From Dehalococcoidia bacterium (GTDB lineage Bacteria; Chloroflexota; Dehalococcoidia; Lucifugimonadales; HRBIN23), in NCBI GenBank assembly GCA_046294495.1, contig JBKBKV010000003.1, positions 5,460 to 69,459 of the forward strand: 64,000 nucleotides of DNA. The letters are read 5' to 3'. Position numbers and translations under genes: made by a program. This document shows, piece after piece, positions 1,567 through 63,133 of this stretch. Below the pieces are notes generated by a model. The model searched no databases and was not told the DNA's origin. It worked only from the letters and a program-made list of their open reading frames with translations. Position 1 is the stretch's first letter; each line of letters opens with the position of its first letter.

Positions 1567-1577
1567 CGCCAGCCTCC

Positions 1578-11318: not shown

Positions 11319-11446
11319 GGCCTACACCTCCTCCAGTAGGTTTGTATGCATTACCATATCCCATCTTCAGGGTAGGGTGCCCACGCCCACCCTCCATCGT
11401 CCTTTTGGCGCAGGAAGCATTGGACTTTTGTCCACTGCCATCTGCG

Positions 11447-13006: not shown

Positions 13007-13593
13007 TACCTGCCTCCCTTGCCCTGCGTAGGCTGTGGCGATAGGTAGACCATTAGTTGCAAATGTGCTGCCGGGGACTGGGCGATGTCGGAGAAGGAGG
13101 CGGAGACGAGAGCGGAGTTAGGGAGGTGCATACCCAGGCGGGAGAGGAAGCCCGATAGGGCCGCCGGCTCGCCTCTAAGCCCCAGGGTAACAGGCTGGGC
13201 CACATACTGAACGCCCTCTAGGCTATTGCTTTGGGTGTCGCCCAGAGCCACGGAGGTCAGGGAGACCCCCGCTTCCTTGGCTGCTGTTACCAATGCCTGC
13301 ACCAGGTCTTCAGGGGTGGCGAGAAGGAAGGGTTGGACGGCCTGCCGCCACTGGCGCTCCCTTTCTGCTACTTCCCTTGCGCGCTCTTCGGCGTTGGGGG
13401 TGTGGGGAGGGGCAACTCCCACTCCCTGACGCGCTTGGATGGCAAGGCTAGCCACCTGTTGGGAGCCACTCCACCAGCGCATCCCCAGCAGGGCGTTGTA
13501 GGCCACCAGGCCCAGGGCCACCAGGAGGGCCATGGCCGGCCACGCCCCCAGGGGGCGTAGGCGTCGCCAGAGAGGGAGAGGCCCTGCCGCCAT
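13006..13593 (-). CDS. PilO-like bitopic pilus assembly protein
   Basis: 195 aa. One TM helix (AMALLVALGLVAYNALL), a short coiled coil and a C-terminal alpha/beta domain. Lies between pilC and pilMN. Its stop overlaps the pilMN start. Confidence 0.5.
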   Translation of the reverse strand: MAAGPLPLWRRLRPLGAWPAMALLVALGLVAYNALLGMRWWSGSQQVASLAIQARQGVGVAPPHTPNAEERAREVAERERQWRQAVQPFLLATPEDLVQALVTAAKEAGVSLTSVALGDTQSNSLEGVQYVAQPVTLGLRGEPAALSGFLSRLGMHLPNSALVSASFSDIAQSPAAHLQLMVYLSPQPTQGKGGR

Positions 13594-42826: not shown

Positions 42827-44557
42827 TTACGGGCGCTGGATACGCACATCCAGCACGGCCGCCTGTCCCCTCTCTACTGCCGATAGGCCCCGCTCCAGGG
42901 CTGGGCGCACCTGCTGGGGGTCTTCCACCCGCTCCCCATACGCCCCGCACGCCTGTGCCACCAGGGCATACTCCGGAGAGGGCGATAGGTCGGTGCCTAG
43001 CCACTGCCCCAGGCGCTGGGCGTAACTCTGGGGATAGGCCTCCCGCCAGGAGCGCTTGGTGGCGTGGTGCATCTGGTTGTTGAAGATGACAGTTAGGAAG
43101 GGTGCACGATAGGCCGTGGCCGTCCACAGGGCCGAGGTAGGGCACCCGAACAGGAAAGAGCCGTCCCCCACCAGGGCCACCACCCGCCGCTGCGGGGAGG
43201 CGAGTTTCGCCCCGATGGCCGCCCCCAATGCCCACCCCAGGCTGGAGCCCCCGCTGGTAAACACGGTGCCAGGCTGTGTGCGCATAACCCCCTGCGCCAC
43301 ATACCCCGCATTGGTAACCGTTTCGTCCAGCAACAGGTCCTCTGGAGAGAGCACCTGGTCAATACAGGAGACCAGCCACTCAGGGGCGATGGGGTAGGTG
43401 GTGGACAGGCGTTGGGCGATGCGGCGCGTCTCCTGGCGCTTCTGGAGATGGGCCTCACCCAGGGAGTGCAGGCGCTCCTGGGCACGCTGGCGTTGGGAAG
43501 GGGTAAGGGAGGCGTCCACCGCTTCAACCAGCGCCGGCAGGGCCTTGGCCGAGTCGGCGTGGATACGCAGATGGGCAGGGAAGGTGAAGAGGGGGATGGT
43601 GGACTTCATGGGGTCAATGTCTATCCAGATGACGGTGGCATCGGGGCGGGGCTTCGCCTGGGAAGGGATGTAGGGGACCTCCTCGTCCACGATTAGGACG
43701 ACATCGGCCTCCCGCAGGTATGGTCCGGGGAGGGTGCCGGCCCAAAGGGGGTGGTTGGTGGGGAAGTTCATACGGCAGGACGAGGCGACCACCGGCGCAC
43801 CAAGGCGCTCTGCCAGGGCCACCAGGGGCGCCACCGCCCCAGGGTTGCGCCCCGCTCGTCCCACGATGAGGAGAGGGCGTTCCGCCTTGGCCAGGGCCTG
43901 GGCTGCCTGTGCCAGAGCCGTAGGGTCGGCCTGGGGGGTAACGGGGGTGGAGAGTTCCTGGGGATAAGGGATGGGCACCCCCTCTACCTCCTCCATAAGC
44001 ACCTCGCGCGGGAGTGTGAGGTAAACAGGCCCTGGTGGCTCCGCAGCAGCCAGGGCGAAAGCCCGATTCACCACATGGTGGATGCTCTCATTGCGACGCA
44101 GTTCGTAGTCCCACTTCACGAAGCCCCGCACGCTCATCCCCTGGTCTATCTGCTCCTGAATCCAGTGGATCCAGATGTTGCGGCTCCCGGGCAGTTCACC
44201 TTCTAGGGTTAGTGGGGCGCGCCCTGCACACAATACGATGCCTGCCTTGCCTCTCTGGGCGTTGTGCAGAGCACCCCCCACCTGCAGGGTGCCAATGTCT
44301 ACATGCACCAGCACCACCTGGGGGCGCCCACTGACCATAAAGTGGCCGTGGGCAGCGGACATAGCCACCCCCTCGTGGGGGCAGACCACCACCTCCGGCG
44401 TCTTCCGCCCTTCTACCCGCAAGCGGGCGATAGCCTCCTGAACGGGGAAGGTGTCGGTGCCAGAGTTCAGGAAGATGTAGTCTACCCCGTTGGCGTTGAG
44501 GAGTTCCACAAAGGCTTCAGCACCCGTGCGCACGGGAGCCACTATCCTCTGCGCCAT
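42827..44557 (-). CDS. Thiamine diphosphate-dependent enzyme, acetolactate synthase/benzoylformate decarboxylase-like
   Basis: 576 aa. ThDP-binding motif LVGDGSFLF...VIFNNQ and the three-domain length. Only 30 nt downstream of the vWA gene, with its own AAGGAGG. Confidence 0.85.
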   Translation of the reverse strand: MAQRIVAPVRTGAEAFVELLNANGVDYIFLNSGTDTFPVQEAIARLRVEGRKTPEVVVCPHEGVAMSAAHGHFMVSGRPQVVLVHVDIGTLQVGGALHNAQRGKAGIVLCAGRAPLTLEGELPGSRNIWIHWIQEQIDQGMSVRGFVKWDYELRRNESIHHVVNRAFALAAAEPPGPVYLTLPREVLMEEVEGVPIPYPQELSTPVTPQADPTALAQAAQALAKAERPLLIVGRAGRNPGAVAPLVALAERLGAPVVASSCRMNFPTNHPLWAGTLPGPYLREADVVLIVDEEVPYIPSQAKPRPDATVIWIDIDPMKSTIPLFTFPAHLRIHADSAKALPALVEAVDASLTPSQRQRAQERLHSLGEAHLQKRQETRRIAQRLSTTYPIAPEWLVSCIDQVLSPEDLLLDETVTNAGYVAQGVMRTQPGTVFTSGGSSLGWALGAAIGAKLASPQRRVVALVGDGSFLFGCPTSALWTATAYRAPFLTVIFNNQMHHATKRSWREAYPQSYAQRLGQWLGTDLSPSPEYALVAQACGAYGERVEDPQQVRPALERGLSAVERGQAAVLDVRIQRP

Positions 44558-49247: not shown

Positions 49248-49619
49248 TGCCCTTTGCCCCCAATCCTCTGCAGTCTTGACTTCTATTATCCCATATTTGG
49301 GACGCGGGTAGCAGTATCTTGGCAGGATGCTAGCCCCTTGTCAACTGCAGGGTGGAGAGGGCCATCGCTCTGACAACGATGAGTTTTATCTACCCTTCCT
49401 CCTGGACATTATCAGCGCCGAGTGGGCCGCGGAGGGTGGTAACCATCTCCTTGCCCACTACAATGAACTCGCTGTAACTGTTGCCCTTGCGGTTGGGATT
49501 GCCCAGGTAAACCTGGGGCCAGAGCCATCGGGGCAAGTGTCAACCTACACCCCTCAGCACCTCGCTCAGTCCACCCCTCCCACCAACCATATCCGTAACA
49601 GCCCCAGGGCCCTGCCCCC

Positions 49620-49674
49620 TTGGCACCTACAACAGCGCAGTGCTATGCTGGAAGTGAACCCCCACCCAGGGGGG
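49620..49674 (+). promoter_or_regulatory. Candidate csoR-copA promoter (TTGGCA N18 TATGCT) with a GC-rich pseudo-palindrome (CCCCC ACCCA GGGGGG) as possible CsoR operator
   Basis: TTGGCA at 49620-49625, TATGCT at 49644-49649, and the C5-N5-G6 inverted repeat at 49659-49674, 15 nt before the csoR ATG. Known CsoR operators are C-tract/G-tract inverted repeats. Confidence 0.4.
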
Positions 49675-49688
49675 AGGGGAGGGTTAGC

Positions 49689-49958
49689 ATGCTGGCCGAA
49701 GTGCGGGAGGATGTGCTCAAACGCCTTGCATCTGTGCAGGGGCACCTGGAGGGTGTGCGACGGATGGTGGAGCAGGACGCTTACTGCGTGGATGTCCTGA
49801 AGCAACTGTTCGCCGTCCAGCGGGCGCTGGACAAGATTGAACAGGCCATCCTGGACGGCCACCTGAAGACCTGCGTGGTGGAGGGCATCCGGGGCGAACG
49901 CACCCAGCAGGTGCTGAAGGAACTGTCGGAAATCTACGCACTGGCTAACCGCTCATAG
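49689..49958 (+). CDS. csoR: CsoR/RcnR-family metal-sensing repressor
   Basis: Track ORF 49620.. trimmed to ATG 49689 (89 aa). Contains RLASVQGHLEGVRRMVEQDAYCVDVLKQLFAVQRALD, with the C-H-C ligand pattern of copper-sensing CsoR. Confidence 0.85.
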   Translation: MLAEVREDVLKRLASVQGHLEGVRRMVEQDAYCVDVLKQLFAVQRALDKIEQAILDGHLKTCVVEGIRGERTQQVLKELSEIYALANRS

Positions 49959-49968
49959 GAGGAAAGGG

Positions 49969-52542
49969 ATGGATCCTTCCCACAAGAAGGCCACTCTGCC
50001 TATCCAGGGGATGACCTGCGCATCCTGCGTGGCCCATGTTAGCGCAGCCCTCCAAAGGGTCCCCGGTGTGGCAAAGGTAAGCGTGAACCTGGCCACCAAC
50101 CGCGCTTACCTGGAATACGACCCCAACCTGGCCACCGTCAAGGCGATGAAGAAGGCTGTGGACGAGATTGGCTACACCGTTGTGCTGGAGCAGGCCAAGT
50201 TCCAAGTTACTGGTATGATGGGCTCCCACTGGGAGGAAGTTATCAGCAAGGCCTTGGGGGAACTGCCAGGGGTTTACCGCGTGGTGGCCAACGCATCTGC
50301 AGAAAGCGTGCGGGTAGAGTTTGCCCCAGACATCACCAGCAAGGCTGAAATACGGAGGACGATAGAGGGGCTGGGCTACAGCGTTACAGAGAAAGTGGAG
50401 GGCGCCGAGGCTGCCGATCGGGAGCGAGAGGCCCGCCAGAAGGAGATACGCCGCCAGGGGCTGAACCTCCTGGTAACCACCCCTCTGGCCCTGGCGGTTA
50501 TGCTGGGCACCTTCCAGCCCTACTGGGGCCTCTCCCGCGTTGTCCCGGATCTCCTGCACAACAAGGTCGTCCTTTTCCTCCTTACCACACCCCTGATTAT
50601 CGGCCCTGGGCGGCAGTTCTTCGTCAACTCCTTCAACGGTCTGCGCAGGGGCCTCACCGATATGAACCTTTTATACGCCACGGGCATTGGAGCAGCCTAT
50701 CTTATCGCCGTTATCAACACCTTCTGGCCCAACGCCGGCTTTGGCGGACGCATGGCCACCTTCTACGAGGCGGCCGCCCTCCTGACCTGGTTCATACTCC
50801 TGGGGCGCTACCTGGAGGCCGTTACCCGCGGGCGCGCCTCCGAGGCCATCCGCCGACTTATGCGCTTCCAGCCACGGCGGGCGCGCCTGGTGCGCAATGG
50901 GGAAGAGGTGGAGGTGCCGGTGGAGGAGGTGGAGGTGGGCGACCTGCTGGTGGTGCGCCCAGGGGAGCAGGTGCCGGTGGACGGCATTGTGGTAGAGGGC
51001 TACTCCGCCGTGGACCAGTCCATAATCACCGGGGAGAGCATCCCCGTGGAGAAGAAGGCCGGGGACGAAGTTATTGGCGGGACGCTGAACAGGACAGGCT
51101 CCTTTACCTTTCGCGCCACCCGAGTGGGGCGAGAGACGGCCCTGGCCCAGATCATCAAACTGGTAGAGGAGGCCCAGACCTCCAAGGCCCCCATTCAGAG
51201 GCTGGCAGACACGGTGGCCGGGCACTTCATCTTCTGGGTGCATGTGCTGGCCCTGGCTACATTCCTCTTCTGGTATTTCGTTGGGTATGACCTCTGGTTC
51301 AGCCCTAACACCCGCCTTATGCTGACCCCATACACGCTGGCCGGGGCCAGCGCTGTGGGGTTCGCTGTGCTCATCTCCATTGCTGTGCTGGTTATCTCCT
51401 GCCCATGCGCTGTGGGCCTGGCCACTCCGGCGGCCATAATGGCCGGGACGGGCAAGGGGGCCGAGCACGGCATCCTCTTCAAGGGCGCCGACGCTGTGGA
51501 GGCCGCCACTAAGGTGCAGGTTATGGTCTTTGACAAGACGGGCACCCTAACCAGGGGGCAGCCAGAAGTAACCGATGTGGTGGCCAACGGGCTGGTGGAA
51601 AGCGAGGTCCTGCGCCTGGCCGCCGTGGCCGAGGTGCGCTCGGAACATCCCCTGGGGGAGGCCATTGTTCGCGCGGCCCGCCAACGGGGCCTGGCCGTCC
51701 CCGATCCCGATGCCTTTGAAGCCATCCCGGGCCGAGGCGTGGAGGCGCTCAGCAACGGCCACAGGGTGCTCCTGGGCAACCGCCGACTTATGGCAGAGCG
51801 GAGCATCCCTCTGGACAGCCTGGCCTATACCGCCGAGCGGCTAGAGCAGGACGGCAAGACGGCCATGTTTGTGGTGGTGGACGGGCACCCGGCTGGGGTC
51901 ATCGCCGTGGCCGACACCCTGCGGGAGACTACCCCCCTGGCAGTGAAAGAGCTTCAGCGCATGGGCATCCGCGTGGCCATGCTCACGGGAGACAACCGCC
52001 GCACCGCAGAGGCCATCGCTCGGCAGTTGGGGATGGACCGGGTGCTGGCCGAAGTGCTCCCCGGCGACAAGGCCCAGGAGATAAAGCGTCTACAGGAGGA
52101 GGGTTACCGGGTGGCTATGGTGGGCGATGGCATCAACGACGCCCCCGCCCTGGCCCAGGCGGATGTGGGCATCGCCATGGGGGCCGGCACAGATGTGGCC
52201 AAGGAGACCGGCCACATCATCCTGGTAAAAGACGACCTTCTGGATGCGGTGGCAGCGTTGCAGGTGGCCAGGGCCACCATGCGCCTGGTCAAGCAGAACC
52301 TGCTGTGGGCCTTCGGCTACAACACCGCTGCCATACCCCTGGCCTTTGGAATCCTCTACCCCTTTGTCCACCAGATGGTCAGCCCAGAACTGGCGGCTTT
52401 CCTCATGGCCATCAGTTCCCTCTCGGTAACCCTGAACACCCAGCGCATGCGGGCCTTTGTGCCGGGTATCCGTCGTCGCTACAAGGGCCTGCCCACCCCT
52501 GTGCCCCGGGAGGCCCCAGCCCCCGTTGCAACAGGGAGGTGA
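49969..52542 (+). CDS. copA: Copper-translocating P1B-type ATPase
   Basis: 857 aa. N-terminal HMA domain GMTCASCVAHV. A second HMA-like repeat has lost the cysteines (TGMMGSHW). Also CPC motif SCPCAVGLATP, DKTGTLT, and GDGINDAPAL. Confidence 0.95.
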   Translation: MDPSHKKATLPIQGMTCASCVAHVSAALQRVPGVAKVSVNLATNRAYLEYDPNLATVKAMKKAVDEIGYTVVLEQAKFQVTGMMGSHWEEVISKALGELPGVYRVVANASAESVRVEFAPDITSKAEIRRTIEGLGYSVTEKVEGAEAADREREARQKEIRRQGLNLLVTTPLALAVMLGTFQPYWGLSRVVPDLLHNKVVLFLLTTPLIIGPGRQFFVNSFNGLRRGLTDMNLLYATGIGAAYLIAVINTFWPNAGFGGRMATFYEAAALLTWFILLGRYLEAVTRGRASEAIRRLMRFQPRRARLVRNGEEVEVPVEEVEVGDLLVVRPGEQVPVDGIVVEGYSAVDQSIITGESIPVEKKAGDEVIGGTLNRTGSFTFRATRVGRETALAQIIKLVEEAQTSKAPIQRLADTVAGHFIFWVHVLALATFLFWYFVGYDLWFSPNTRLMLTPYTLAGASAVGFAVLISIAVLVISCPCAVGLATPAAIMAGTGKGAEHGILFKGADAVEAATKVQVMVFDKTGTLTRGQPEVTDVVANGLVESEVLRLAAVAEVRSEHPLGEAIVRAARQRGLAVPDPDAFEAIPGRGVEALSNGHRVLLGNRRLMAERSIPLDSLAYTAERLEQDGKTAMFVVVDGHPAGVIAVADTLRETTPLAVKELQRMGIRVAMLTGDNRRTAEAIARQLGMDRVLAEVLPGDKAQEIKRLQEEGYRVAMVGDGINDAPALAQADVGIAMGAGTDVAKETGHIILVKDDLLDAVAALQVARATMRLVKQNLLWAFGYNTAAIPLAFGILYPFVHQMVSPELAAFLMAISSLSVTLNTQRMRAFVPGIRRRYKGLPTPVPREAPAPVATGR

Positions 52543-52545
52543 AGG

Positions 52546-52773
52546 ATGAAAAACGCGGCTCGCCTAAGCGCTCTCATCTACCTGGGCGGCGCCCTCCTGG
52601 TGGCCGGGGCATTCCTGGGTCTGGCAACTCTGAGGGGTGAGCGCTCCTGGGCCAGCCGAGGCATCGGCGCCGCCTGGGTCCTCCTCCTCACCACCATTAT
52701 CCTTATGCCTGTAGTTATCCCCTGGATGAAGAGGCGTATGGCCAACGGAAAGAGAGAAGGAGGTGCACCGTGA
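52546..52773 (+). CDS. Small two-TM membrane protein
   Basis: 75 aa. Starts 3 nt after the copA stop. Two hydrophobic helices. GTGA overlap with the next ORF. Confidence 0.45.
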   Translation: MKNAARLSALIYLGGALLVAGAFLGLATLRGERSWASRGIGAAWVLLLTTIILMPVVIPWMKRRMANGKREGGAP

Positions 52774-53051
52774 AGCGTCTTTCTATTCTGCTTGTCGTCG
52801 CCGTTGCAGCGGTCTCGTTCCTGGCAGGGAGCCTGTGGGGGGGCCGACTGGTTACGCCCCTGAAGGCCGCCACCTTGCGCCAGGAACCCGGCCCACAGGC
52901 ATGCCTGCAGATGATGCAGGGACAGGGAATGGAGCAGTGCCAGCAGTTCCACCAGAAGTGCCACGACTTGATGGGCTCCCAGGGTATGGAGGGGATGCAC
53001 GGCGTGATGATGGGTGCTGGCATGACGGGCATGGGCATGATGGGCCACTAA
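52770..53051 (+). CDS. Exported/anchored Met-, His- and Cys-rich small protein (putative copper-binding)
   Basis: 93 aa. N-terminal hydrophobic segment, then CLQMMQGQGMEQCQQFHQKCHDLMGSQGMEGMHGVMMGAGMTGMGMMGH. GTG start after AGAGAGAAGGAGG. Confidence 0.55.
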   Translation: MKRLSILLVVAVAAVSFLAGSLWGGRLVTPLKAATLRQEPGPQACLQMMQGQGMEQCQQFHQKCHDLMGSQGMEGMHGVMMGAGMTGMGMMGH

Positions 53052-53105
53052 TAGCCTACCCACTGCTTCTGGTATAGTTAGCAGCCTCTAATAAGGAGGT
53101 GAACA

Positions 53106-53291
53106 ATGGTCTTCTGGCGTGTGAAGAAGGAGACCGACCCCGTTTGCGGCATGAAGGTGGATCCCAAGAAGGCCCCTGCCACCTTTGACTACCAGGGGAA
53201 GACCTACTACTTCTGCAGCCCAGGGTGCAAGGCCAACTTCCAAAAGGAGCCGCAGAAGTTCCTGAAGGGTGGCCCACAGGCAATGAGGTGA
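53106..53291 (+). CDS. YHS/TRASH-domain metal-binding protein
   Basis: 61 aa. DPVCGMKVD...YYFCSPGCKANF is the YHS/TRASH cysteine pattern. AAGGAGG Shine-Dalgarno. Confidence 0.8.
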   Translation: MVFWRVKKETDPVCGMKVDPKKAPATFDYQGKTYYFCSPGCKANFQKEPQKFLKGGPQAMR

Positions 53292-53365
53292 CGCTAATTT
53301 TTGCTATAATAAATACGTGGGCACTACCAGGACACCTGCCCACAGGAGGAACACAACTCTAGATT

Positions 53366-53974
53366 ATGCGTTCAAGACAGAAGGACAACTTATCCACCCG
53401 CCCTCGTGTCTCCATCCGCGATATGGAGATAGATGACCTGGCCGCTGTTTACCACCTGGGCGAAAGCCTATTCACTCGCACCGCCCTGCCTGTCCTCTAC
53501 CGCACCTGGGACCCCTACGAGGTTACCTCTGCCTTCAACACCGACCCCGAGTTCTGCCTCGTGGCGGAAGACGAAGAGGGGCGCATTGTGGGCTTCGCTC
53601 TGGGGAGCACTGTAGACAAAGACGGCCCTTCGTGGCGCTACGGCTACCTGGCCTGGCTGGGTGTGAAGGAGGAGTTCCAGGGGCTAGGGGTGGCTCACCG
53701 CCTCCTCCATGAGTTTGAGAGGCGCATGAAGGAGGAAGGGGTGCGCATGCTCATCGTGGACACCGAGGGAGACAATGCCAAGGCCCTGGCCTTCTTCCGT
53801 AAGAACGGCTTCACCCGCCCCACCAGCCATATGTGGCTTACCAAGAGCCTTACCCGTCAGGAGAATGGCTCTTTGAAGCCTCTGAAGCCCCTGGTAATCG
53901 CTCAGGCGAAGGGGCGCGCCCGCCCTAGGAAGGGCACCCCGCCCGCGCCAGACCTGGCCGCAGCGGGCGCCTAG
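53366..53974 (+). CDS. GNAT-family N-acetyltransferase
   Basis: 202 aa. Acetyl-CoA motif AWLGVKEEFQGLGVAHRLL and ALAFFRKNGF. The true start may be the internal Met at MEIDDLAAV. An extended -10 (TGcTATAAT, 53302-53310) lies upstream. Confidence 0.8.
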   Translation: MRSRQKDNLSTRPRVSIRDMEIDDLAAVYHLGESLFTRTALPVLYRTWDPYEVTSAFNTDPEFCLVAEDEEGRIVGFALGSTVDKDGPSWRYGYLAWLGVKEEFQGLGVAHRLLHEFERRMKEEGVRMLIVDTEGDNAKALAFFRKNGFTRPTSHMWLTKSLTRQENGSLKPLKPLVIAQAKGRARPRKGTPPAPDLAAAGA

Positions 53975-54032
53975 CCCCACACCTCCCCTTCCTCACGCTG
54001 AACCTCCGCGCTGCAAAGGGTGAGGGTTGCCT

Positions 54033-55010
54033 CTACAGCCCGAAGTTGTCGGCCACCGCCTTCAGAATAGCAGGCACATCAGGGAGGGCCAGGCGCTCCA
54101 GGTTGCGGGCGTAGGGGGCTGGGGCATCGGCCCCAGATAGGTGGGCGATGGGGGCATCCAGGTAGTCAAAGGCCTCCTGGTGCAGGCGCAGGCCCAGGTA
54201 GGGGCCGATGCCTGCCATAGGCCACGCCTCCTCCACGATGAGGGCGCGGTGCGTCTTGCGCACTGAAGCCGTTGCCGTCTCTATGTCCAGGGGGCGCAGG
54301 GTGCGCAGGTCTATCACCTCCGCCTCCACTCCCTGTTGGGCCAACTGCTCGGAAGCCTGCAGGCATAGGTGCAAACACCGCCCGTAGGAGATAAGGGTCA
54401 GGTCGCGCCCGGGACGCTTCACCTCCGATTTGCCTACAGGCACCTCGTAATATCCCTCGGGGACGGCCCCCCGCGCACCGTAAAGGAGAGCGTGCTCGCA
54501 GTAGAGGATGGGGTTCTGCTCCTTAAGGCAGGCGCGCAGGAGGCCCAGGGCGTCGTAGGGGGTAGCTGGGAAGACCACCTTCAGGCCAGGCACCGATGTA
54601 TACCACCCCTCCAGGCTCTGGGAGTGGGTGGCAGCCAGGCCGGCGCCCCCTCCTGTTACGGTGCGCACCAGCATGGGCACCGCCAGTTGCCCACCCGACA
54701 TGTAGCGCAGTTTGGCGGCGTGGTTGACAATCTGGTCCATGGCCAGGAGGCTGAAGTTGATGGTCATAATCTCCACGATGGGGCGCAGGCCCCCCATAGC
54801 GGCCCCTATGCCCGCCCCCACTATGGCTGATTCGGAGATGGGGGTGTCCCGCACCCGCTCTGGCCCATACTGGCGTAGAAAGCCCTTGGTTACGGCATAG
54901 GCTCCCCCGTAGGCCCCGATGTCCTCCCCCATTAGGAAGACGCGGGCATCGCTCTCCAGGGCCTCCTGGAGGCCTTTGCGGATGGCTTCGCGCAGGGTTA
55001 CTTCGGGCAT
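54033..55010 (-). CDS. 2-oxoacid (pyruvate/acetoin/branched-chain) dehydrogenase E1 beta subunit
   Basis: 325 aa. LREAIRKGLQEALESDARVFLMGEDIGAYGGAY and DTPISE are typical of E1 beta. Confidence 0.9.
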   Translation of the reverse strand: MPEVTLREAIRKGLQEALESDARVFLMGEDIGAYGGAYAVTKGFLRQYGPERVRDTPISESAIVGAGIGAAMGGLRPIVEIMTINFSLLAMDQIVNHAAKLRYMSGGQLAVPMLVRTVTGGGAGLAATHSQSLEGWYTSVPGLKVVFPATPYDALGLLRACLKEQNPILYCEHALLYGARGAVPEGYYEVPVGKSEVKRPGRDLTLISYGRCLHLCLQASEQLAQQGVEAEVIDLRTLRPLDIETATASVRKTHRALIVEEAWPMAGIGPYLGLRLHQEAFDYLDAPIAHLSGADAPAPYARNLERLALPDVPAILKAVADNFGL

Positions 55011-55019
55011 GGCAGGCTC

Positions 55020-55994
55020 CTAGGCATAGATGTCTTGGTAGAGAGACTCTGGGGGTGGCTCAGGGCTGGCGTCGGCGAAGCGGATGGCTTCCTCTACCTC
55101 CGTCTCAACAGCCCGTTCTATTTGAGTCAGTTCCTCCAGGGTAGCGACGGCGTTCTCCAGCAGGTAGCGCTGGAAGGTGGGAATAGGGTCGCGGGCCTTC
55201 CACATCTCCTCCTCACCCCTGTCCCGGTATTCCACCGGGTCGGCCATGGAGTGGCCCCGGAAGCGGTATGTGAGGGCCTCTAGGAAGAAAGGGCCCTTCC
55301 CCTGGCGGGCGTGCTGAACGGCCCGCTGGGCCGACTCCCGCACCGCCAGCACATCCATGCCATCGGTCTGCCAGGCGGGGATACGGTAATGGTCGGCAGC
55401 CTTGAACACATCTCGCCCCCCGGCATAGGTGCGGTCAATGTGGGAGCCCATGCCGTAAAGGTTGTTTTCCAGGAAGAAGACGACGGGCAGTTTCCACAGG
55501 GCAGCCAGGTTGAGGGCCTCGTGGAACTCCCCCTGGTTGAGGGCGCCATCGCCGAAGAAGCATACCGTTACCCGTTCTTCACCCTTCAGTTTGGAGGAGA
55601 GGGCTAGGCCCACAGCGACAGGTAGTTGCCCCCCTACGATGGCATAGCCCCCCATAAAGTTACGGCTGACATCAAACAGGTGCATGCTGCCGCCCTTGCC
55701 CTTGCTACACCCCGTTGCCTTGCCGAAGAGTTCGGCCATAACCGACTTGGGGTCCACACCCCGGGCCAGGGCGTGGCCGTGGTCGCGGTAGTGGGTAACC
55801 ACATAGTCCTCGGAGCGCAGGACACTCATACACCCCACAGCGATGGCCTCCTCGCCGATATATAGGTGCAGGAAGCCTCGTATCTTCCCCAGCATATACA
55901 TATCGGCGCACCGCTCCTCAAAGCGCCGGATCAGGAGCATTTGCCGATAAAAGGAGAGCAAATCAGTCTTATTTACACGCTCTTGCAGTTGCAT
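55020..55994 (-). CDS. 2-oxoacid dehydrogenase E1 alpha subunit (ThDP-binding)
   Basis: 324 aa. YRQMLLIRRFEE, YRDHGH, and the ThDP motif FFGDGALNQGEFHEALNLAALWKLPVVFFLENNLYGMG. Confidence 0.9.
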   Translation of the reverse strand: MQLQERVNKTDLLSFYRQMLLIRRFEERCADMYMLGKIRGFLHLYIGEEAIAVGCMSVLRSEDYVVTHYRDHGHALARGVDPKSVMAELFGKATGCSKGKGGSMHLFDVSRNFMGGYAIVGGQLPVAVGLALSSKLKGEERVTVCFFGDGALNQGEFHEALNLAALWKLPVVFFLENNLYGMGSHIDRTYAGGRDVFKAADHYRIPAWQTDGMDVLAVRESAQRAVQHARQGKGPFFLEALTYRFRGHSMADPVEYRDRGEEEMWKARDPIPTFQRYLLENAVATLEELTQIERAVETEVEEAIRFADASPEPPPESLYQDIYA

Positions 55995-56040
55995 TGCACC
56001 TCCTTACCGAAGGGGCGGGAAGGCAAGGGTGTTCCCCGGG

Positions 56041-56976
56041 CTAGTTCTGACTACATCGTTGCAGGAGCGCCTCCCATTCCTGGTCAACGCGCTGCTGAAT
56101 CTCCTCTACCAGTGGGTGATGCTCCTCCTTGAGGAGGTGTGCGAAGCGCCCCTGGGCCTCCAGCCACGCCCGGATAGGGAGTTTGCGGGCGGGACGGTAG
56201 GAGAGGCGCCAGCGCCCCTGCTCCACCTCATACAGGGGCCAGACACAGGTGTCCGCTGCCAGTTTGCTGATGCGGATGGTCTCCTCTGGCGGATAGCGCC
56301 ACCCCCGGGTGCAGGGTGCCAGCACATTGATGAAGGCAGGGCCGTCCACACTTGCCCCCTTCTGCACCTTCTGCATCAGGTCTTTCCAGTGGTGGGGCGC
56401 TGCCTGCGCCACATAGGGGATGCGGTGGGCTGCTGCAATAGCCGTAAGGTCTTTCCGCCATTGGGGCTTGCCTGGGAGCGCGCTCCCCACAGGGGTGGTG
56501 GTGGTCCAAGCCCAGGAGATGGTGGCGCTGCTGCGCTGGGTGCCCGTGTTCATGTAGGCTTCGTTGTTCAAGCAGATGTAGAGGAAGCGGTGCCCCCTCT
56601 CCATAGCGCCGCTGAGCCACTGTAGACCTATGTCGTAGGTGGCACCGTCGCCCCCGAATACCAGAAAGGCCACACCCTCGGGCACCTCTTTCCCCCGTCG
56701 GCGCAGGGCCTTATACGCCGCCTCAACCCCGCTAATTGAGGAGGCGGCGTTCTCAAAGGCGCTGTGGATGAGGGGGACACGCCACGCCGTCCACGGATAG
56801 CGGGTGGTGGAGACCTCCAGACACCCGGTGGCCAGCGCTACAACGGCTGGCTTCCCCAGGGCGTGCAAGACGAGACGCACGATAACCGACTCGGCGCACC
56901 CGGCACACAGGCCATGCCCTGGGGCCAGCAGGTCGGGCTGGCCCGCCAGGTCGCGCAGAACAAGGGGAACGGGCAT
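56041..56976 (-). CDS. porB: 2-oxoacid:ferredoxin oxidoreductase beta subunit (ThDP/Fe-S)
   Basis: 311 aa. Cysteine ligands GLCAGC...TGC and ThDP motif FGGDGATYDIG...NNEAYMNTG. Confidence 0.9.
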   Translation of the reverse strand: MPVPLVLRDLAGQPDLLAPGHGLCAGCAESVIVRLVLHALGKPAVVALATGCLEVSTTRYPWTAWRVPLIHSAFENAASSISGVEAAYKALRRRGKEVPEGVAFLVFGGDGATYDIGLQWLSGAMERGHRFLYICLNNEAYMNTGTQRSSATISWAWTTTTPVGSALPGKPQWRKDLTAIAAAHRIPYVAQAAPHHWKDLMQKVQKGASVDGPAFINVLAPCTRGWRYPPEETIRISKLAADTCVWPLYEVEQGRWRLSYRPARKLPIRAWLEAQGRFAHLLKEEHHPLVEEIQQRVDQEWEALLQRCSQN

Positions 56977-56979
56977 GCT

Positions 56980-58200
56980 TCACCTCCCTTCCCGCAGACC
57001 TAGCCAGCCGGCAAAGCCAGGGGGTGTGGATGGGTTTACCAGTGAACGGAAGGCAGACTCTATCTGGTCAGGGAGGGCCTCCCGTCCACCAATGCCGTAG
57101 GCCCAACCCACCGTCTTCTTGGGCAGGGCGTGGCAGGCCAGGGCGCTGGCCACTTCGGCAAAGAGGGGTAGGGCAGAGGCTCCAGGGGCCAGGGCCCTGT
57201 CCAGCACGCCTACGGCCTGCACATGGGCCAGAGCGCTGGCCACCTCTTGGGTGGGGAAGGGGCGGAAAGAGCGAATGCGGAGCATCCCCGCTCGCAGGCC
57301 ATCACGGCGCAGGCGGTCCACCACTGCTCGCACGGTTCCGGCGGTGGAACCCAGCACCACCAGCGCCACCTCGGCATCCTCTAAGCGATACGGCTCCACT
57401 AACTTGTAGAAGCGTCCGCTAATCTCGCCGAACTCCTGGAAAAGGCTTTCCAACACCCCTTGCGCACAGGTCATCCCCTCCACCTGGCCCCGCTTATGTT
57501 CCATATGAAAGTCCTGAAAGTCCAAAGCCCCAAAGGTAACGGGGTGATGAATGTCCAGCAGGGTGTGGAATGGCTTGAACTCCCCCACAAAGTCGGCCAC
57601 CACACGGTCTGGCAGGAGCAACGCCCGCTCAAGGCAATGGGTAACGATAAAGCCGTCCAGCACATTGGCCACGGGGAGGAGCACCTGGGGGTGCTCCGCC
57701 AGGCGCACAGCAATGATGGCCTGATCGTAGGCCTCCTGTCCATTCTCGGCGAAGAGCATAATCCAACCTGTGTCCCGCATGCCCATGGCATCGCTGTGGT
57801 CGCACAAGATGTTAATGGGGGCAGAGAGGGTGCGAGTGCACAGATGGAGAACGATGGGCAGACGCATGCCCGAGGCTACCCCCAGCAGTTCCCACATAAG
57901 AGCCAGGCCTGGGCCTGATGTGGCAGTTTGGGCGCGAGCGCCAGCAGCGGCCGCCCCGATGCACACGCTCAGTGCGGCGTGTTCGCTCTCCACGGGGACA
58001 AACTCGGTGTGCACCTGGCCGTTAGCCACGAACTGGCTAAAGGCCTCTGTAATAAGGGTCTGGGGGGTAATAGGGTAGGCGGCCACTACATCGGGGCGGC
58101 TCTGGAGCATAGCGTGGGCTACCAGGGTGCCCCCGTCCATTGCCACCGGCGTCCCTAGGCCGTGCACCTGGGGCGCCCGGGGAGATGTCGCTAACGCCAT
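56980..58200 (-). CDS. porA: 2-oxoacid:ferredoxin oxidoreductase alpha subunit
   Basis: The track starts at 58290 and overlaps porD. Trimmed to ATG 58200 (MALATSPRAP...), which follows AAAGGAGG. AAYPITPQT and FVPVESEHAA are typical of PorA. Confidence 0.9.
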   Translation of the reverse strand: MALATSPRAPQVHGLGTPVAMDGGTLVAHAMLQSRPDVVAAYPITPQTLITEAFSQFVANGQVHTEFVPVESEHAALSVCIGAAAAGARAQTATSGPGLALMWELLGVASGMRLPIVLHLCTRTLSAPINILCDHSDAMGMRDTGWIMLFAENGQEAYDQAIIAVRLAEHPQVLLPVANVLDGFIVTHCLERALLLPDRVVADFVGEFKPFHTLLDIHHPVTFGALDFQDFHMEHKRGQVEGMTCAQGVLESLFQEFGEISGRFYKLVEPYRLEDAEVALVVLGSTAGTVRAVVDRLRRDGLRAGMLRIRSFRPFPTQEVASALAHVQAVGVLDRALAPGASALPLFAEVASALACHALPKKTVGWAYGIGGREALPDQIESAFRSLVNPSTPPGFAGWLGLREGR

Positions 58201-58216
58201 AATCGCCTCCTTTAGG

Positions 58217-58513
58217 CTAGGCGGGGATGCTGACAGGCTCCGCCTCCATTCGGATGCAGGCCTTGGGGCACTCTCGTGCGCAGATGCCACATCCCTTGCA
58301 GTGCCCCAGGTCTATCCCCACCAGTTTGCCGTCTCGCACGATAAATGCGCTGTCGGGGCAGAAGGCCCAGCAGATCATGCAGTGCACACAACGCTCCATA
58401 TCAATGACAGGGCGCAGGCTTCGCCAGGAGCCGGTATCTACCTGCACCGAATTGCCCGGCTCCACCAGCAGGCCACCGGGGGGCTCCTCATACCAGGGGC
58501 GCAGTGGGGGCAT
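58217..58513 (-). CDS. porD: 2-oxoacid:ferredoxin oxidoreductase delta subunit (2x[4Fe-4S] ferredoxin)
   Basis: 98 aa. Two CxxCxxCxxxCP motifs (CVHCMICWAFCPD, CKGCGICARECP). Confidence 0.9.
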   Translation of the reverse strand: MPPLRPWYEEPPGGLLVEPGNSVQVDTGSWRSLRPVIDMERCVHCMICWAFCPDSAFIVRDGKLVGIDLGHCKGCGICARECPKACIRMEAEPVSIPA

Positions 58514-58515
58514 GG

Positions 58516-59118
58516 CTACCTCCCTTCCCAGGCATGGACTTCCTGGTATCCCCGTTCAAAGGCGCGCAGGTTGGCCTCCATCACCTGAGGCCCTAGGCGC
58601 TCCCCCAGGCGCTCCCGTAGGGTCGCCCGCGCTGCCTCCAGGGAGACCAATGGGCGCAAGCGCAGAAGGCTCCCCAGGAGGGGGATGTTGGGTATAGGAC
58701 GCCCCAGAGTAGCCTGGGCAATGCCAGTGGCATCCACCGTGGCGACGGTGGCCTGGGGCCACCCCAGGGAGGCGGCCAGGGCCTCGGGGGATGCCGGGGT
58801 ATTTAGCAGGAGCAAGCCTCCAGGGCGCAGGCCCTGCACCACGGGCAGGCGACCCAGCAGGGTATAGTCCAGCACCACAACGATGTGAGGCTCCTGGACG
58901 GGATAGCGGAAAGGGATAGGGGTGTCGGCGATGCGGGTGTAGGCCACCACCGGCGCCCCCGAGCGCTCGGCCCCGAACTCGGGTAGCGACTGGAAGTAAA
59001 GGTTATCCACCAGGGCTGCCTCGGCCAGGAGGTTGCTGGCCGTAACTACCCCCTGCCCGCCACGCCCGTGCCACCGCACCTCCACCCAGCGCCGACCTAC
59101 ATCGCTACCAGCCTCCAT
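58516..59118 (-). CDS. porG: 2-oxoacid:ferredoxin oxidoreductase gamma subunit
   Basis: 200 aa. VRWHGRGGQGVVTASNLLAEAA and FGAERSGAP are typical of PorG. Confidence 0.9.
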   Translation of the reverse strand: MEAGSDVGRRWVEVRWHGRGGQGVVTASNLLAEAALVDNLYFQSLPEFGAERSGAPVVAYTRIADTPIPFRYPVQEPHIVVVLDYTLLGRLPVVQGLRPGGLLLLNTPASPEALAASLGWPQATVATVDATGIAQATLGRPIPNIPLLGSLLRLRPLVSLEAARATLRERLGERLGPQVMEANLRAFERGYQEVHAWEGR

Positions 59119-59150
59119 GGTAGACGCCTCCCCTCTGCCTTCCTCTTATC

Positions 59151-60536
59151 TTAGATGTGTATCGCCTCGCCCAGGGCGGCCAGGGACGCCTCCTTAAGGG
59201 CTTCCGAGAGGGTCGGGTGGGCGTGCACCAGCCACCCTGTCTCCCGAACTGTGCCCTCTAGCAGGCGGGCTAGGGCCATTTCAGGGAGCAGTTCGGTAAC
59301 CTCCGGCCCCACCATATGAACGCCCAGGATTTCGCCATATTGGGCATCGGCCACCACCTTCACAAAACCCTCGCCCTCTCCCAGAGCCAGGGCCTTGCCG
59401 TTGGCCATGAAGGGGAACTTCCCCACCTTCACCTGATGCCCCGCCTCCTGCGCCTGCTTCTCCGTGAGGCCCCAGGAAGCCACCTGGGGGTTGCAGTAGA
59501 CAGCCCGAGGCATAAGGGTGTAGTCCAGGGGGCGCGTCTCTTTGCCGGCGATGGTCTCCACCGCCAGGATGCCCTGGGCCGAGGCCACATGGGCCAGGGG
59601 CATGCGCCCCGTTACATCCCCGATGGCGTAAATGTGGGGTGCGCTGGTGCGCTGGCGCTCGTCCGTTGAGACCCATCCCCCTTTCTCCACACCGACCCCC
59701 GCCTCCTGTAGGCCGATGCCCTCCGAGTTGGGTTGAACCCCCACGCAAACCAGCACTCGCTGGGCCGTGAGGCTCTGGGTGCCCTGGGGTGTATCCACGG
59801 TGAGGGTAGCCTGGCCCCCGTTTCGCTGGAGGCCTGTAACTTTCGCCCCTGTCTGGAAACGAATGCCCTGCTTTTGAAAGGCCCGTTCCAGGGCCTGGGA
59901 GACCTCCTCGTCCTCGTTGGGGAGCAGGTGAGGGAGGAGTTCCACAATGGTAACCTGGACGCCGTAGGCGTTATAGAGGTAGGCGAACTCGCACCCGGTC
60001 GCCCCTCCACCCACGATGATGCAGGAGGCCGGCAGGTCGCGCCGCTCCAGGGCTTCCCTGCTGGTCAAAACAACTTGCCCGTCCAGGGGTAGGACGGGCA
60101 AGGAGCGGGGGCGGGCACCAGTGGCTACTACTACATAGGAGGCGCTGATAATGCGCCCAGAGGCCTTGAGGGCTACCTGCCCGTTCCCCCGCAGGACGGC
60201 CTCATCCCGTATAACTTCTACCTTGCTCTTGCGCAGAAGGAACTCCACCCCTCGCACCAGGCGTTGAACGACCTGGCGGCTCCGCTCTACGGCCTTGCCG
60301 AAGTCCAGGTGTAGGTTGTCAAAGGCAATGCCCCAATCGCTGGCGTGGCGCACATACTGCACCACCTCGGCGTTGCGGAGCAGGGCCTTGGAGGGTATGC
60401 ATCCCCAGTTCAGGCAGATGCCCCCCACATGCTCCCTCTCCACCAGGGCGGTCTTGAGGCCCAGTTGACCTGCACGAATGGCGGCCACATAGCCCCCTGG
60501 GCCACCACCTATCACCACTAGGTCGTAATCGGCCAT
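59151..60536 (-). CDS. lpd: Dihydrolipoyl dehydrogenase (E3 / L-protein)
   Basis: The track's GTG 60572 lies inside the predicted promoter, so I prefer ATG 60536 (MADYDLVVIGGGPGGY). Contains the redox disulfide CLNWGCIPSK and C-terminal HAHPTLSE. Confidence 0.93.
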   Translation of the reverse strand: MADYDLVVIGGGPGGYVAAIRAGQLGLKTALVEREHVGGICLNWGCIPSKALLRNAEVVQYVRHASDWGIAFDNLHLDFGKAVERSRQVVQRLVRGVEFLLRKSKVEVIRDEAVLRGNGQVALKASGRIISASYVVVATGARPRSLPVLPLDGQVVLTSREALERRDLPASCIIVGGGATGCEFAYLYNAYGVQVTIVELLPHLLPNEDEEVSQALERAFQKQGIRFQTGAKVTGLQRNGGQATLTVDTPQGTQSLTAQRVLVCVGVQPNSEGIGLQEAGVGVEKGGWVSTDERQRTSAPHIYAIGDVTGRMPLAHVASAQGILAVETIAGKETRPLDYTLMPRAVYCNPQVASWGLTEKQAQEAGHQVKVGKFPFMANGKALALGEGEGFVKVVADAQYGEILGVHMVGPEVTELLPEMALARLLEGTVRETGWLVHAHPTLSEALKEASLAALGEAIHI

Positions 60537-60695
60537 GTCTGCCCCCGGCAAGGTATCGTTATAGTCTATCACTTCAGAATACCCTGTCTATAGGTGCTTG
60601 TCTAGGGGCGTGCGGCCCCCCTTTCCCTGCAGGAATACCCCCCGATCCCCCCTTTATGGTAAGATACCAACAGCCCACTTCCCGATGGAGCGTCT

Positions 60696-61901
60696 ATGAC
60701 AAGAGACGCCTTGACAGGTATCACAGTCATAGAGGTTGCGGGAGGGGTGGGGATCGGCTACTGCGGACGCCTCCTGGCCGACCAGGGGGCACGGGTGCTC
60801 CTGGTGGAGCCGCCCCAAGGCTCGCCCCTGCGCCGCTCCGGCCCCTTCCCCGGCGAGATCCCCAACCCCGAGGCGAGCGGCCCCTTCCTCTATCTCGGCG
60901 CTGGCAAGGAGAGCATCACCCTGAACCTACACACGGCCACAGGGCGCTTCCTCTTCCGCCATCTCCTGGAGCGCGCCGATGTTCTCCTGGAGGATTTCCC
61001 CCCTGGGGCACTGGAGGGCCTGGGCCTCGCCCCGGCGGACCTCCAGCGCTCCTTCCCCCGCCTGGTGCACCTGAGCCTTACCTGGTTTGGACACGTTGGC
61101 CCCTACGCCCACTACCAGGGGTGCGACCTGGTGGCCTATGCCGTAAGCGGATACGCCTACCTGACGGGAGACCCCGACAAGCCCCCCCTGAAGGCCGGCG
61201 GAAGGCAAACAGAATACCAGGGGGGTGTCAACGGGGCGGTGGCTGTGCTATCGGCCCTTCTGGGAAGGGACCTCACCGGTCGGGGCCAGTGGATAGACCT
61301 CTCGGTTGTGGAGGCTACCGCCCACACCTTTGACGGGGTAACGGTTTTCCAGATGGCCCAGCGAGGCGTTGTGCCCAGGCGCAACGGCACCCGCCTTATC
61401 CAGCGGGAGCCGCACACCGCCTACCCCTCTACCCTTATTCCCGTCAAAGGGGGATGGGTGCACGCCCACTGGTCGCCCCAGAACCCGGAGGGCCTGGCCC
61501 TCCTGGCCCACAACCCGCGCCTGGCCGACCCAGAGGTGCTGGCCACACCTATGGGCCACGCCGACGAGATAGACGCCCTGCTTATAGAAGGGCTAAAGGA
61601 GTGCACACCCCAGGAGGTGATGGAGCAGGCCCAGGAACTGCGCATCCCTTTCACCGTGGTGCAGGATGTGGCCCAGGTGCTAGACGACCCCCAGAACCGG
61701 GCTATGGGCTTCTTCCCCGATGTGGAGCACCCTGTTGCTGGGCGGTGGCGCATCCCCGCTTCCCCCATCCACTGGGACGATGCGCCTTATGAACCCCGTC
61801 GGGCCCCTCTGCTGGGGGAGCACAACCGGAGGGTGTTTTGCCAGGAACTGGGCCTCTCCCCTCAAGACCTGGTGCGCCTACGGGCAGGGGGTGTGGTATG
61901 A
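60696..61901 (+). CDS. Family III CoA-transferase (CaiB/BaiF/Frc-like), subunit 1
   Basis: 401 aa. GITVIEVAGGVGIGYCGRLLADQGARVLLVE N-terminus and family III length and layout. Confidence 0.9.
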   Translation: MTRDALTGITVIEVAGGVGIGYCGRLLADQGARVLLVEPPQGSPLRRSGPFPGEIPNPEASGPFLYLGAGKESITLNLHTATGRFLFRHLLERADVLLEDFPPGALEGLGLAPADLQRSFPRLVHLSLTWFGHVGPYAHYQGCDLVAYAVSGYAYLTGDPDKPPLKAGGRQTEYQGGVNGAVAVLSALLGRDLTGRGQWIDLSVVEATAHTFDGVTVFQMAQRGVVPRRNGTRLIQREPHTAYPSTLIPVKGGWVHAHWSPQNPEGLALLAHNPRLADPEVLATPMGHADEIDALLIEGLKECTPQEVMEQAQELRIPFTVVQDVAQVLDDPQNRAMGFFPDVEHPVAGRWRIPASPIHWDDAPYEPRRAPLLGEHNRRVFCQELGLSPQDLVRLRAGGVV

Positions 61902-63133
61902 GCCTCTCCCTGGAAGGCGTCCGCATCGTAGACCTCACCCTGGTTATCGCCGGGCCTGTTGCCACACGCGTCCTGGCAGCCCTGGGCGCCCAGGTCATCA
62001 AGGTAGAACCCCCCTGGGGACGCACGGTAGGGCGGGTGCACTCCCTCCCCAGCCTCTTGGGGAGCGCTCGCCCCTATAACGCCAACCCCGCCTTCAACGA
62101 AGTGAACCGGGGGAAGATGAGCATCAGCCTGAACCTCCAGCACCCCCTGGGCAAGGAGGCTTTCCTGCGCCTGGTCTCCGTTAGCGATGTGGTGATAGAG
62201 AACTTCAGCCCCCGCGTTCTCCCCAACCTGGGGCTGGACTACCCCATCCTGCGCCAGCACCGCCCAGATATTATCCTGGTTTCCATGCCCGCCCTGGGGC
62301 ACAAAGGCCCCTGGCGCAACTACATCTCCTTCGGGCCAGGCACCGACGCCCTGGGGGGGCTATCCTCCGTCACCGGTTATGAAGGGGGCCAACCTCACAA
62401 GCCGGGCAACTACTACGCCGACCAGAACTCGGCCTACCATACGGCCTTTGCCGTTATGTGCGCCCTGTATCGGCGGCGGCGCACTGGTAAGGGCGCACAC
62501 CTGCGCATCGCCCTGCGGGAGGCCACCCAGGCCGTCATCGGCGAATACTTCCTAGAACCCCAGATGACGGGGCGTGTCCCCACCCGCATGGGGAACCGCC
62601 ACCCATGGATGGCCCCCCACGGTATCTACCCCTGCAAGGGCGAGGACGCATGGGTGGCTCTCGCCTGCGCTGCCGATGAGCACTTCCGCGCCCTGTGCCT
62701 GTTGATTGGCCGCCCCAACCTGGCTGATGACCCCCGTTTCGCCGACACCCTGTCCCGAAAGAGGAACGAGGCCCTGCTAGACGGCCCCATCAGCCAGTGG
62801 ACAAGCCAGCACACCCCGAGGGAGGCCATGCACCTCCTTCAACGGGCGGGGGTGCCTGCAGGGGCCGTGTTTAAGGCGCCAGAGATGCTGGAGGACCCCC
62901 ACTGGAAGGCTTTAGGATTTGTCCAGGAGGTGGAGCACCCGGAGATGGGGCGGGCATTGCACCCAGGCCTGCCCTGGCGCGCCAGCGAGATGACCCCTCG
63001 CCAAGGTGTGCCCGCACCCTTGTATGCGGAGCATAACGAGGCGGTGCTGCACAGTATACTGGGCCTGGATCCGCAGGTGGTTACCCAGATGCGAGAAGAG
63101 AAGGTAGCACCTGCGGAGCCAATAGGAGGCTAG
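61898..63133 (+). CDS. Family III CoA-transferase, subunit 2
   Basis: The track starts at 61838. Trimmed to ATG 61898, which gives an ATGA overlap with the upstream stop (MSLSLEGVRIVDLTLVIAGPVATRVLAALGAQVIKVE). Confidence 0.9.
   Translation: MSLSLEGVRIVDLTLVIAGPVATRVLAALGAQVIKVEPPWGRTVGRVHSLPSLLGSARPYNANPAFNEVNRGKMSISLNLQHPLGKEAFLRLVSVSDVVIENFSPRVLPNLGLDYPILRQHRPDIILVSMPALGHKGPWRNYISFGPGTDALGGLSSVTGYEGGQPHKPGNYYADQNSAYHTAFAVMCALYRRRRTGKGAHLRIALREATQAVIGEYFLEPQMTGRVPTRMGNRHPWMAPHGIYPCKGEDAWVALACAADEHFRALCLLIGRPNLADDPRFADTLSRKRNEALLDGPISQWTSQHTPREAMHLLQRAGVPAGAVFKAPEMLEDPHWKALGFVQEVEHPEMGRALHPGLPWRASEMTPRQGVPAPLYAEHNEAVLHSILGLDPQVVTQMREEKVAPAEPIGG

Follow-up and report, generated by a model that had tools for sequence, protein, structure and literature searches.

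How can an operon that codes for the first (E1) and third (E3) components of a pyruvate dehydrogenase (PDH) complex do without the second (E2), and why are the genes of a ferredoxin-dependent oxidoreductase found in its middle? The question is raised by a stretch of 64,000 nucleotides (nt) of contig JBKBKV010000003.1 from a Dehalococcoidia bacterium (assembly GCA_046294495.1), hereafter the window, in which an earlier model-made annotation (the original prediction) had described such a locus. The answer that we consider highly likely is that the operon combines a conventional PDH complex with a conventional pyruvate:ferredoxin oxidoreductase (POR), probably co-transcribed, the E2 of the former being encoded elsewhere. 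Neither an unconventional lipoyl carrier nor E2-free chemistry is required. The hybrid operon is a genuine, conserved arrangement that probably reflects the co-regulation of two standard enzymes.

The seven genes (lpd, porG, porD, porA, porB, and those of E1alpha and E1beta) occupy positions 54033-60536 of the minus strand, all co-directional and head to tail, with spacers of 32, 2, 16, 3, 46, and 9 nt in gene order from lpd to E1beta (Table 1). Families were assigned with Pfam and NCBIfam and start codons were refined by comparison with relatives, that of porA being taken from the gene call in a near-identical contig (L001). Both the open reading frames (ORFs) and the families bear out the original prediction of seven co-directional genes with 2-46 nt spacers, and PDH-complex genes are joined here to a whole POR-family cluster of four subunits in a genuine composite operon. 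The expected motifs are in place: Lpd has the CLNWGC redox disulfide, two GxGxxG motifs, and HPT; PorD has two CxxCxxCxxxC motifs (4Fe-4S); PorB has a CxxC at residue 24 and the thiamine diphosphate (ThDP) motif GDG-x26-NN; and E1alpha has its ThDP motif (GDG...NN) at residue 148. The nearest genome is "bacterium HR23" (HR23; L002), which is 81% identical over 6.6 kb at the nucleotide level and 88% identical in Lpd. Purifying selection on each of the seven genes is evident from the comparison with HR23, with ratios of nonsynonymous to synonymous divergence (dN/dS) of 0.10-0.15 (0.10 for lpd, 0.12 for porG) at a synonymous divergence (dS) of 0.66-1.02; therefore, E1alpha and E1beta are no decaying remnants.

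The genomes nearest to the window belong to the Chloroflexota, and most of them are annotated as Dehalococcoidia. When genome contigs, among which the window's own genome was absent, were scanned with E1alpha, HR23 gave the best match (87%). In 31 related Chloroflexota loci we found a contiguous lpd-E1alpha-E1beta-E2 without por genes, and E1alpha-E1beta-E2 was present in four more; thus, the PDH operon of this class begins with E3 and finishes with E2. Contig L160 (87, 88, and 84% identical to the window in lpd, E1alpha, and E1beta, respectively) differs from the window by a clean indel of ~3.1 kb that corresponds exactly to porGDAB and is the sole difference from the CoA-transferase genes to the E1beta stop codon. 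The alignment extends as far as the stop codon of lpd and resumes at the ribosome-binding site (RBS) of E1alpha, and a comparison of the spacers around the insertion found neither repeats nor recognizable scars.

The seven-gene hybrid order is also present in HR23, in the close Logan relatives L163 and L164 (96 and 90% E1beta identity, respectively), and in two groundwater metagenome-assembled genomes (MAGs), L175 and L177, whose identity to the window is 68-71% in E1beta and about 63% in PorA. L177 carries all eight genes (lpd-porGDAB-E1alpha-E1beta-E2), and partial hybrids were found on three short metagenome contigs (porGDAB-E1alpha in L081, lpd-porGDAB in L084 and L087). A metagenome scan with PorA brought up further hybrid operons and no full-length relatives closer than 62%. 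In trees built by neighbor joining on Kimura distances (implemented in numpy, 200 bootstrap replicates), PorA/B of all hybrids form one clade (200/200) that also holds por clusters from other contexts, and relatives of the cluster in L080-L159 stand alone, outside a PDH operon. The tree of lpd plus E1 places the hybrids within one clade (200/200) together with the por-less L160, L003, L004, L174, and L021. The simplest reading would be one por insertion followed by losses.

The seven genes most likely form one transcript, as far as the sequence tells, starting from a promoter upstream of lpd. A single transcription unit is likely because the spacers are short, because each of the five genes from porG to E1alpha is preceded by a GGAGG-type RBS (the sixth downstream gene, E1beta, having a weaker TAGGAG), because no terminator-like site was found in any intergenic spacer of the unit, and because the promoter region of lpd is conserved. 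The ~75 nt located 5' of lpd are maintained in the window, L160, and HR23 in spite of the high coding dS, and L175 and L177 have a TATAAT at the position aligned with the promoter-like region of the window. Intergenic promoter-like sites appear upstream of lpd only, with one further site inside porA, and the porB-E1alpha spacer of the window contains no conserved promoter-like element.

The conserved segment (window 60537-60620, minus strand; L160 7500-7584; L002 960-1044) includes three TAGAC(A/T) repeats, which may serve as promoter elements or as the operator of some regulator.

The alternative that fares best is that chance brought the por genes into the pdh operon, with separate or irrelevant transcription and no regulatory meaning. 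The operon does tolerate other insertions (an enoyl-CoA hydratase gene between E1alpha and E1beta in L179, a radical-SAM gene between E1beta and E2 in HR23), the close relatives L160 and L003 lack por at this site, and the porB-E1alpha spacer of L177 is long (228 nt). However, the order has been kept across lineages as divergent as the groundwater MAGs, and the spacers of the window, with their RBSs, no terminator between genes, and no promoter-like element conserved before E1alpha, also argue against a chance neighborhood, which we consider unlikely.

All four POR subunits are present with their ThDP and Fe-S motifs, and the subfamily cutoffs of TIGR02175 and TIGR02179 are passed. The best solved relative of PorA is the alpha subunit of a pyruvate:ferredoxin oxidoreductase (PFOR; 9bt4_B, 295 bits), and POR is still the top-scoring assignment, ahead of 2-ketoisovalerate:ferredoxin oxidoreductase (VOR), oxalate oxidoreductase, and the phenylglyoxylate enzyme. 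From these matches, the substrate of PorGDAB is most likely pyruvate. A different function could be imagined in which Lpd moves electrons from the Fe-S chain of POR to NAD+, like the five-subunit phenylglyoxylate:NAD+ oxidoreductase, given that porG stands directly after lpd in every hybrid and that Pad subunits are among the weaker NCBIfam relatives of PorG, PorD, PorA, and PorB. Yet lpd is also the first gene in all 31 por-less loci, so that its adjacency to porG follows from the insertion site, and Lpd is a canonical lipoamide dehydrogenase above the equivalog cutoff, whereas the models of the NAD-dependent phenylglyoxylate dehydrogenase (PadEFGHI) stay far under theirs (PadG, 289 bits versus 700; PadI, 205 versus 700; PadE, 128 versus 300; PadF, 72 versus 150). 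Moreover, the NAD-binding Pad subunit is a flavoprotein of a different kind from Lpd. Such a coupling seems very improbable, and a Pad-like NAD-linked POR was rejected on account of these scores and of the canonical nature of the adjacent flavoprotein.

On the PDH side, E1alpha, E1beta, and Lpd all score above the cutoffs of PDH-complex families (heterotetrameric E1 type). The best solved relative of E1alpha is human PDH E1alpha, with 290 bits versus 144-173 bits for enzymes of the branched-chain 2-oxoacid dehydrogenase (BCKDH) type, and the NCBIfam matches of both E1 subunits (E <= 0.001) include no model of the acetoin family. By these comparisons, E1alpha is PDH-type, neither acetoin-type nor BCKDH-type. 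The original prediction had considered an acetoin-type E1 working without E2, which is contradicted by the match to the TIGR03182 equivalog and by the human enzyme as the closest structure. An acetoin-type E1 was accordingly rejected, as the PDH equivalog cutoff is passed, no Aco model matches, and the relocated E2 described below is not of the acetoin type.

As had been predicted, there is no E2 in the operon or in the rest of the window. No match was obtained by tblastn with three E2 proteins of related loci (E <= 10), and a hidden Markov model (HMM) of 18 E2s, applied with --max to all the stop-to-stop ORFs of the window with 30 or more amino acids (aa), returned nothing (best E = 9.8); the same HMM recovered the E2 fragment of HR23 at E = 5e-38. 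The product of gcvH is indeed the sole lipoyl protein of the window.

An E2 is nevertheless found at other sites in the relatives. In HR23, its lipoyl domain begins 1254 nt after E1beta, past a radical-SAM gene on the opposite strand, and the contig ends there. No E2 follows the L175 operon over 9.8 kb, and a solitary E2 (P0264) lies on another contig of MAG GCA_016210285.1; the E2 is thus in the same assembly for the hybrids L175/L176, as it is for L177, and HR23 has it on the contig of the operon itself. A search of the protein database with the 85-aa HR23 fragment gave short proteins only (<=146 aa, <=68% identity) and missed the orthologs, and a chimeric query (HR23 N terminus plus the remainder from L003) recovered P0242, P0243, and P0244, full-length E2s that are 84-88% identical to the HR23 fragment. 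P0244 (393 aa, with lipoyl, E3_binding, and 2-oxoacid_dh domains) is encoded on contig L173 of Logan sample SRR31360862, which also holds L001, a contig with one mismatch in 8909 nt to positions 49624-58532 of the window (99.989%).

The identity of P0244 is 84% with the HR23 fragment and 91% with P0242 of the sister lineage, which comes from the SRR277300xx runs that also contain L164 and L165. The window and L164 of that lineage share 90% identity in both E1alpha and E1beta and 92% in PorB. Since the 91% identity between the E2s matches the 90% between the E1s, the E2 co-varies with the E1. The GC content of L173 is 62.1%, versus 63.0% in the window, and the tetranucleotide correlation between them (r = 0.970) is inside the internal range of the window (0.960-0.980). 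The tree of the E2s agrees coarsely with that of the E1s and groups the relocated E2 with the E2s of lpd-pdhAB-E2 operons. Its best family match is the PDH E2 (TIGR01349, 364 bits, below the cutoff of 445), and it reaches 104 bits on the acetoin E2 model, where the cutoff is 307. In L173 (20-5767) and L166 (195-7160), the gene is followed on the same strand by one for a 145-aa protein with no family match (hyp145) and by those of an aa3-type cytochrome c oxidase, in the order E2-hyp145-COX2-COX1-COX3-COX4. Upstream there is a divergent radical-SAM gene with 85% identity to the E2 neighbor of HR23 (P0242 lineage). Scans for terminators and promoters between the E2 and the oxidase genes were uninformative.

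Of the "distant or unconventional lipoyl carrier" that had been suggested, the first adjective probably holds, with a relocated ordinary E2 as the carrier, and the second is not supported. The original prediction had also stated that a co-varying E2 elsewhere, together with separate porB-E1alpha and lpd-porG transcripts, would reduce the arrangement to simple juxtaposition. Such an E2 was found, but the evidence favors one transcript over separate ones; therefore, the arrangement would not be simple juxtaposition either. An E1/E3 pair working independently of E2, be it an acetoin- or dichlorophenolindophenol (DCPIP)-type oxidoreductase or one in which GcvH or another carrier replaces E2, is extremely unlikely. 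In its favor, no E2 is encoded in the 54 kb downstream or the 3.4 kb upstream, the window does carry gcvH, and two more loci (L160, without por, and the hybrid L175) lack an adjacent E2. Against it, both E1 subunits are above PDH-specific cutoffs and a canonical E2 ortholog exists in the same sample, the sister lineage, HR23, and the MAG of L175. GcvH as a surrogate carrier was likewise rejected, as the canonical E2 ortholog that was found has the E3/E1-binding domain.

The E2 gene takes another form in L008 (12201-13944) and in other long-read Dehalococcoidia MAGs (L009-L018, L024, L038), where a very long linker rich in Pro and Glu divides the match. The two parts in L008, lipoyl and catalytic, are separate ORFs in different frames, which is either a truly split gene or a frameshift artifact in repeats. 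Lipoyl-only proteins of 120-131 aa on long ENA contigs (P0002-P0008) may be the same phenomenon.

We propose that the ancestral operon was the class-typical lpd-pdhA-pdhB-pdhC, that porGDAB was placed precisely between lpd and pdhA, and that pdhC (E2) was split off the operon end by a rearrangement. E1alpha/beta and Lpd would assemble on a conventional E2 core, whose gene in this lineage precedes the aa3-type cytochrome c oxidase operon, into an ordinary NAD+-dependent PDH complex, and Lpd would presumably double as the L-protein of the glycine cleavage system. PorGDAB would act independently as a ferredoxin-dependent 2-oxoacid oxidoreductase. The operon would then offer two parallel pyruvate-to-acetyl-CoA routes with different electron acceptors, and a "dual system for one substrate," one of the options in the original prediction, is plausible from the gene content. 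It is also conceivable, if rather doubtful, that the split is itself a regulatory device, with E1, E3, and POR made from the lpd promoter and E2 made along with the aa3 oxidase genes, so that oxygen would gate the assembly of PDH. If this were true, oxygen would decide, simply through E2, whether the cell oxidizes pyruvate by the ferredoxin-linked or the NAD-linked route, since a PDH complex cannot form without its E2 core. A radical variant of this idea, direct electron transfer between POR and Lpd, is speculative.

Several points weigh against the combination of two conventional enzymes in one transcript with a distant E2. The E2 of L173 appears to be linked to the window by the shared sample, the matching divergence, and the composition, not by physical linkage. 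Co-transcription is deduced from sequence features, and the porB-E1alpha spacer of L177 leaves room for an internal promoter. The POR subunits are under the pyruvate-specific NCBIfam equivalog cutoffs (PorA_Arch, 434.7 bits versus 550; PorB PRK11865, 357.5 versus 405; PorC, 171 versus 270; PorD_Arch, 102 versus 120), and another 2-oxoacid could be the substrate. Finally, bootstrap values within the large lpd-E1 clade are only 12-119/200, with the por-less L003 and L160 interspersed among the hybrids, so that the insertion may have arisen once or more than once.

The system resembles the PDH complex of the bacterial/mitochondrial type (heterotetrameric E1; pdhA-pdhB-pdhC-lpd) in its E1alpha, E1beta, and E3 families, in the ThDP and redox-disulfide motifs, and in an E2 ortholog with lipoyl, peripheral subunit-binding, and catalytic domains, and relatives keep the four genes in one operon. 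Unlike in the usual PDH operon, E3 comes first in this class, and here four por genes interrupt the series and E2 is probably distant, beside cytochrome c oxidase genes. The por part is like the four-subunit PorABCD/porGDAB of archaea and Thermotoga-like bacteria (9bt4), with the same gamma-delta-alpha-beta order of four separate subunits, two ferredoxin-type clusters in delta, the ThDP motif and CxxC in beta, and POR as the best NCBIfam and PDB matches. It differs from them in scoring under the pyruvate-specific cutoffs and in being embedded in a PDH operon instead of standing alone. The acetoin system AcoABCL and the E1-only clusters of haloarchaea share with the window an E1alpha/beta pair from one superfamily, and some haloarchaeal 2-oxoacid dehydrogenase clusters have neither E2 nor E3 genes. 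Work on such clusters is among the references of PMC8305020. Unlike in AcoABCL, no acetoin model matches the E1s of the window, and the E2 ortholog is PDH-like.

In cyanobacteria, the PDH and PFOR genes are not known to lie at one locus, whereas here they share one operon. One study reports that the PDH complex and PFOR coexist in the aerobe Synechocystis, and that cyanobacterial PFOR steps in for an inactivated PDH when aerobic conditions become highly reducing (PMC8887894). As in that organism, NAD+- and ferredoxin-dependent routes from pyruvate to acetyl-CoA would be found together.

PDH and POR are commonly seen as alternative aerobic and anaerobic solutions, separately encoded and regulated. 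The conserved nested operon suggests that some facultative Chloroflexota co-express both, which would fit the use of PFOR in aerobes with inhibited PDH (PMC8887894). Our search of the open-access literature turned up no description of a pdh operon with por genes inside it, nor anything relevant on HRbin23. The enzymes appear to be conventional members of known families, the novelty being the gene order (the por insertion and the recurrent detachment of E2); hence, the significance would be regulatory and evolutionary, not mechanistic. Since E2 has been repeatedly detached in this clade, an "E2-less" locus in a MAG should not be taken as a missing or novel function before the whole assembly has been searched.

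Table 1. Features of the window, beginning with the hybrid operon (positions from the first letter of the window)
Feature	Position	Strand	Description
lpd	59151-60536	-	Dihydrolipoyl dehydrogenase (E3), 461 aa, ATG at 60536; TIGR01350, 573 bits vs cutoff 408.8
porG (PorC)	58516-59118	-	Gamma subunit of 2-oxoacid:ferredoxin oxidoreductase; PF01558; TIGR02175, 188.5 bits vs 81.1
porD	58217-58513	-	Delta subunit, 2x[4Fe-4S] ferredoxin-like; Fer4 (Pfam); TIGR02179, 99 bits vs 60
porA	56980-58200	-	Alpha subunit, 406 aa; POR_N + PFOR_II
porB	56041-56976	-	Beta subunit (ThDP + [4Fe-4S]); TPP_enzyme_C; best NCBIfam PRK11865 PorB
pdhA	55020-55994	-	PDH E1alpha; TIGR03182 PDH_E1_alph_y, 463.5 bits vs 393.85
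pdhB	54033-55010	-	PDH E1beta, last of the unit; NF006667, 409.5 bits vs 321; Transket_pyr + Transketolase_C
Promoter-like region 5' of lpd	60563-60604	-	Consensus scan: TAGACA-17-TATTCT, overlapping TAGACA-16-TAGACT with extended TG
Two family III CoA-transferase genes	60696-63133	+	PF02515; divergent from lpd; conserved upstream context
GNAT acetyltransferase	53366-53974	+	Acetyltransf_1 (Pfam); at the operon end, where relatives have E2
Copper-homeostasis cluster	49327-53343		Beyond the GNAT gene; CsoR-like repressor, P-type copper ATPase (49969-52542), small ORFs, YHS-domain protein
gcvT-gcvH-gcvPA	1-2696	-	Glycine cleavage operon; Pfam GCV_T, GCV_H, GDC-P
gcvT	1578-2696	-	
gcvH	1156-1566	-	
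gcvPA	1-1152	-	Extends past the window edge

The homology of the window to HR23 and L160 ends at the E1beta stop codon, and the genes that follow differ in the four contexts compared: the GNAT gene and the copper cluster in the window, the radical-SAM gene in HR23, a helix-turn-helix (HTH) regulator and a major facilitator superfamily (MFS) transporter in L175, and MoxR in L160. L163, the 96%-identical relative, has the same GNAT neighbor as the window. The copper cluster, located where relatives have E2 or other genes, may mark the rearrangement. On the other side, the divergent CoA-transferase pair is likewise found beside lpd in L160-L162, which are without por.

Other variants of these gene sets were seen among the relatives. 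L179 (5708-11260) has another interrupted operon, lpd-E1alpha-[enoyl-CoA hydratase]-E1beta-E2, with E1beta called at only 245 aa. Sulfobacillus and related Bacillota (L039, L042, L044-L047, L053, L054, and others; ~7500-13400) have lpd, two tandem E1alpha paralogs, E1beta, and E2. In L086 (3100-3582), a por cluster close to those of the hybrids has, in place of E1alpha, the beginning of a KorA-like (gamma-alpha fused) subunit after it, and therefore two 2-oxoacid:ferredoxin oxidoreductase (OFOR) systems stand in tandem. Lastly, the window codes for another 2-oxoacid-handling enzyme, an acetolactate-synthase-like ThDP enzyme of 576 aa (42827-44557, minus strand; TPP_enzyme_N/M/C).

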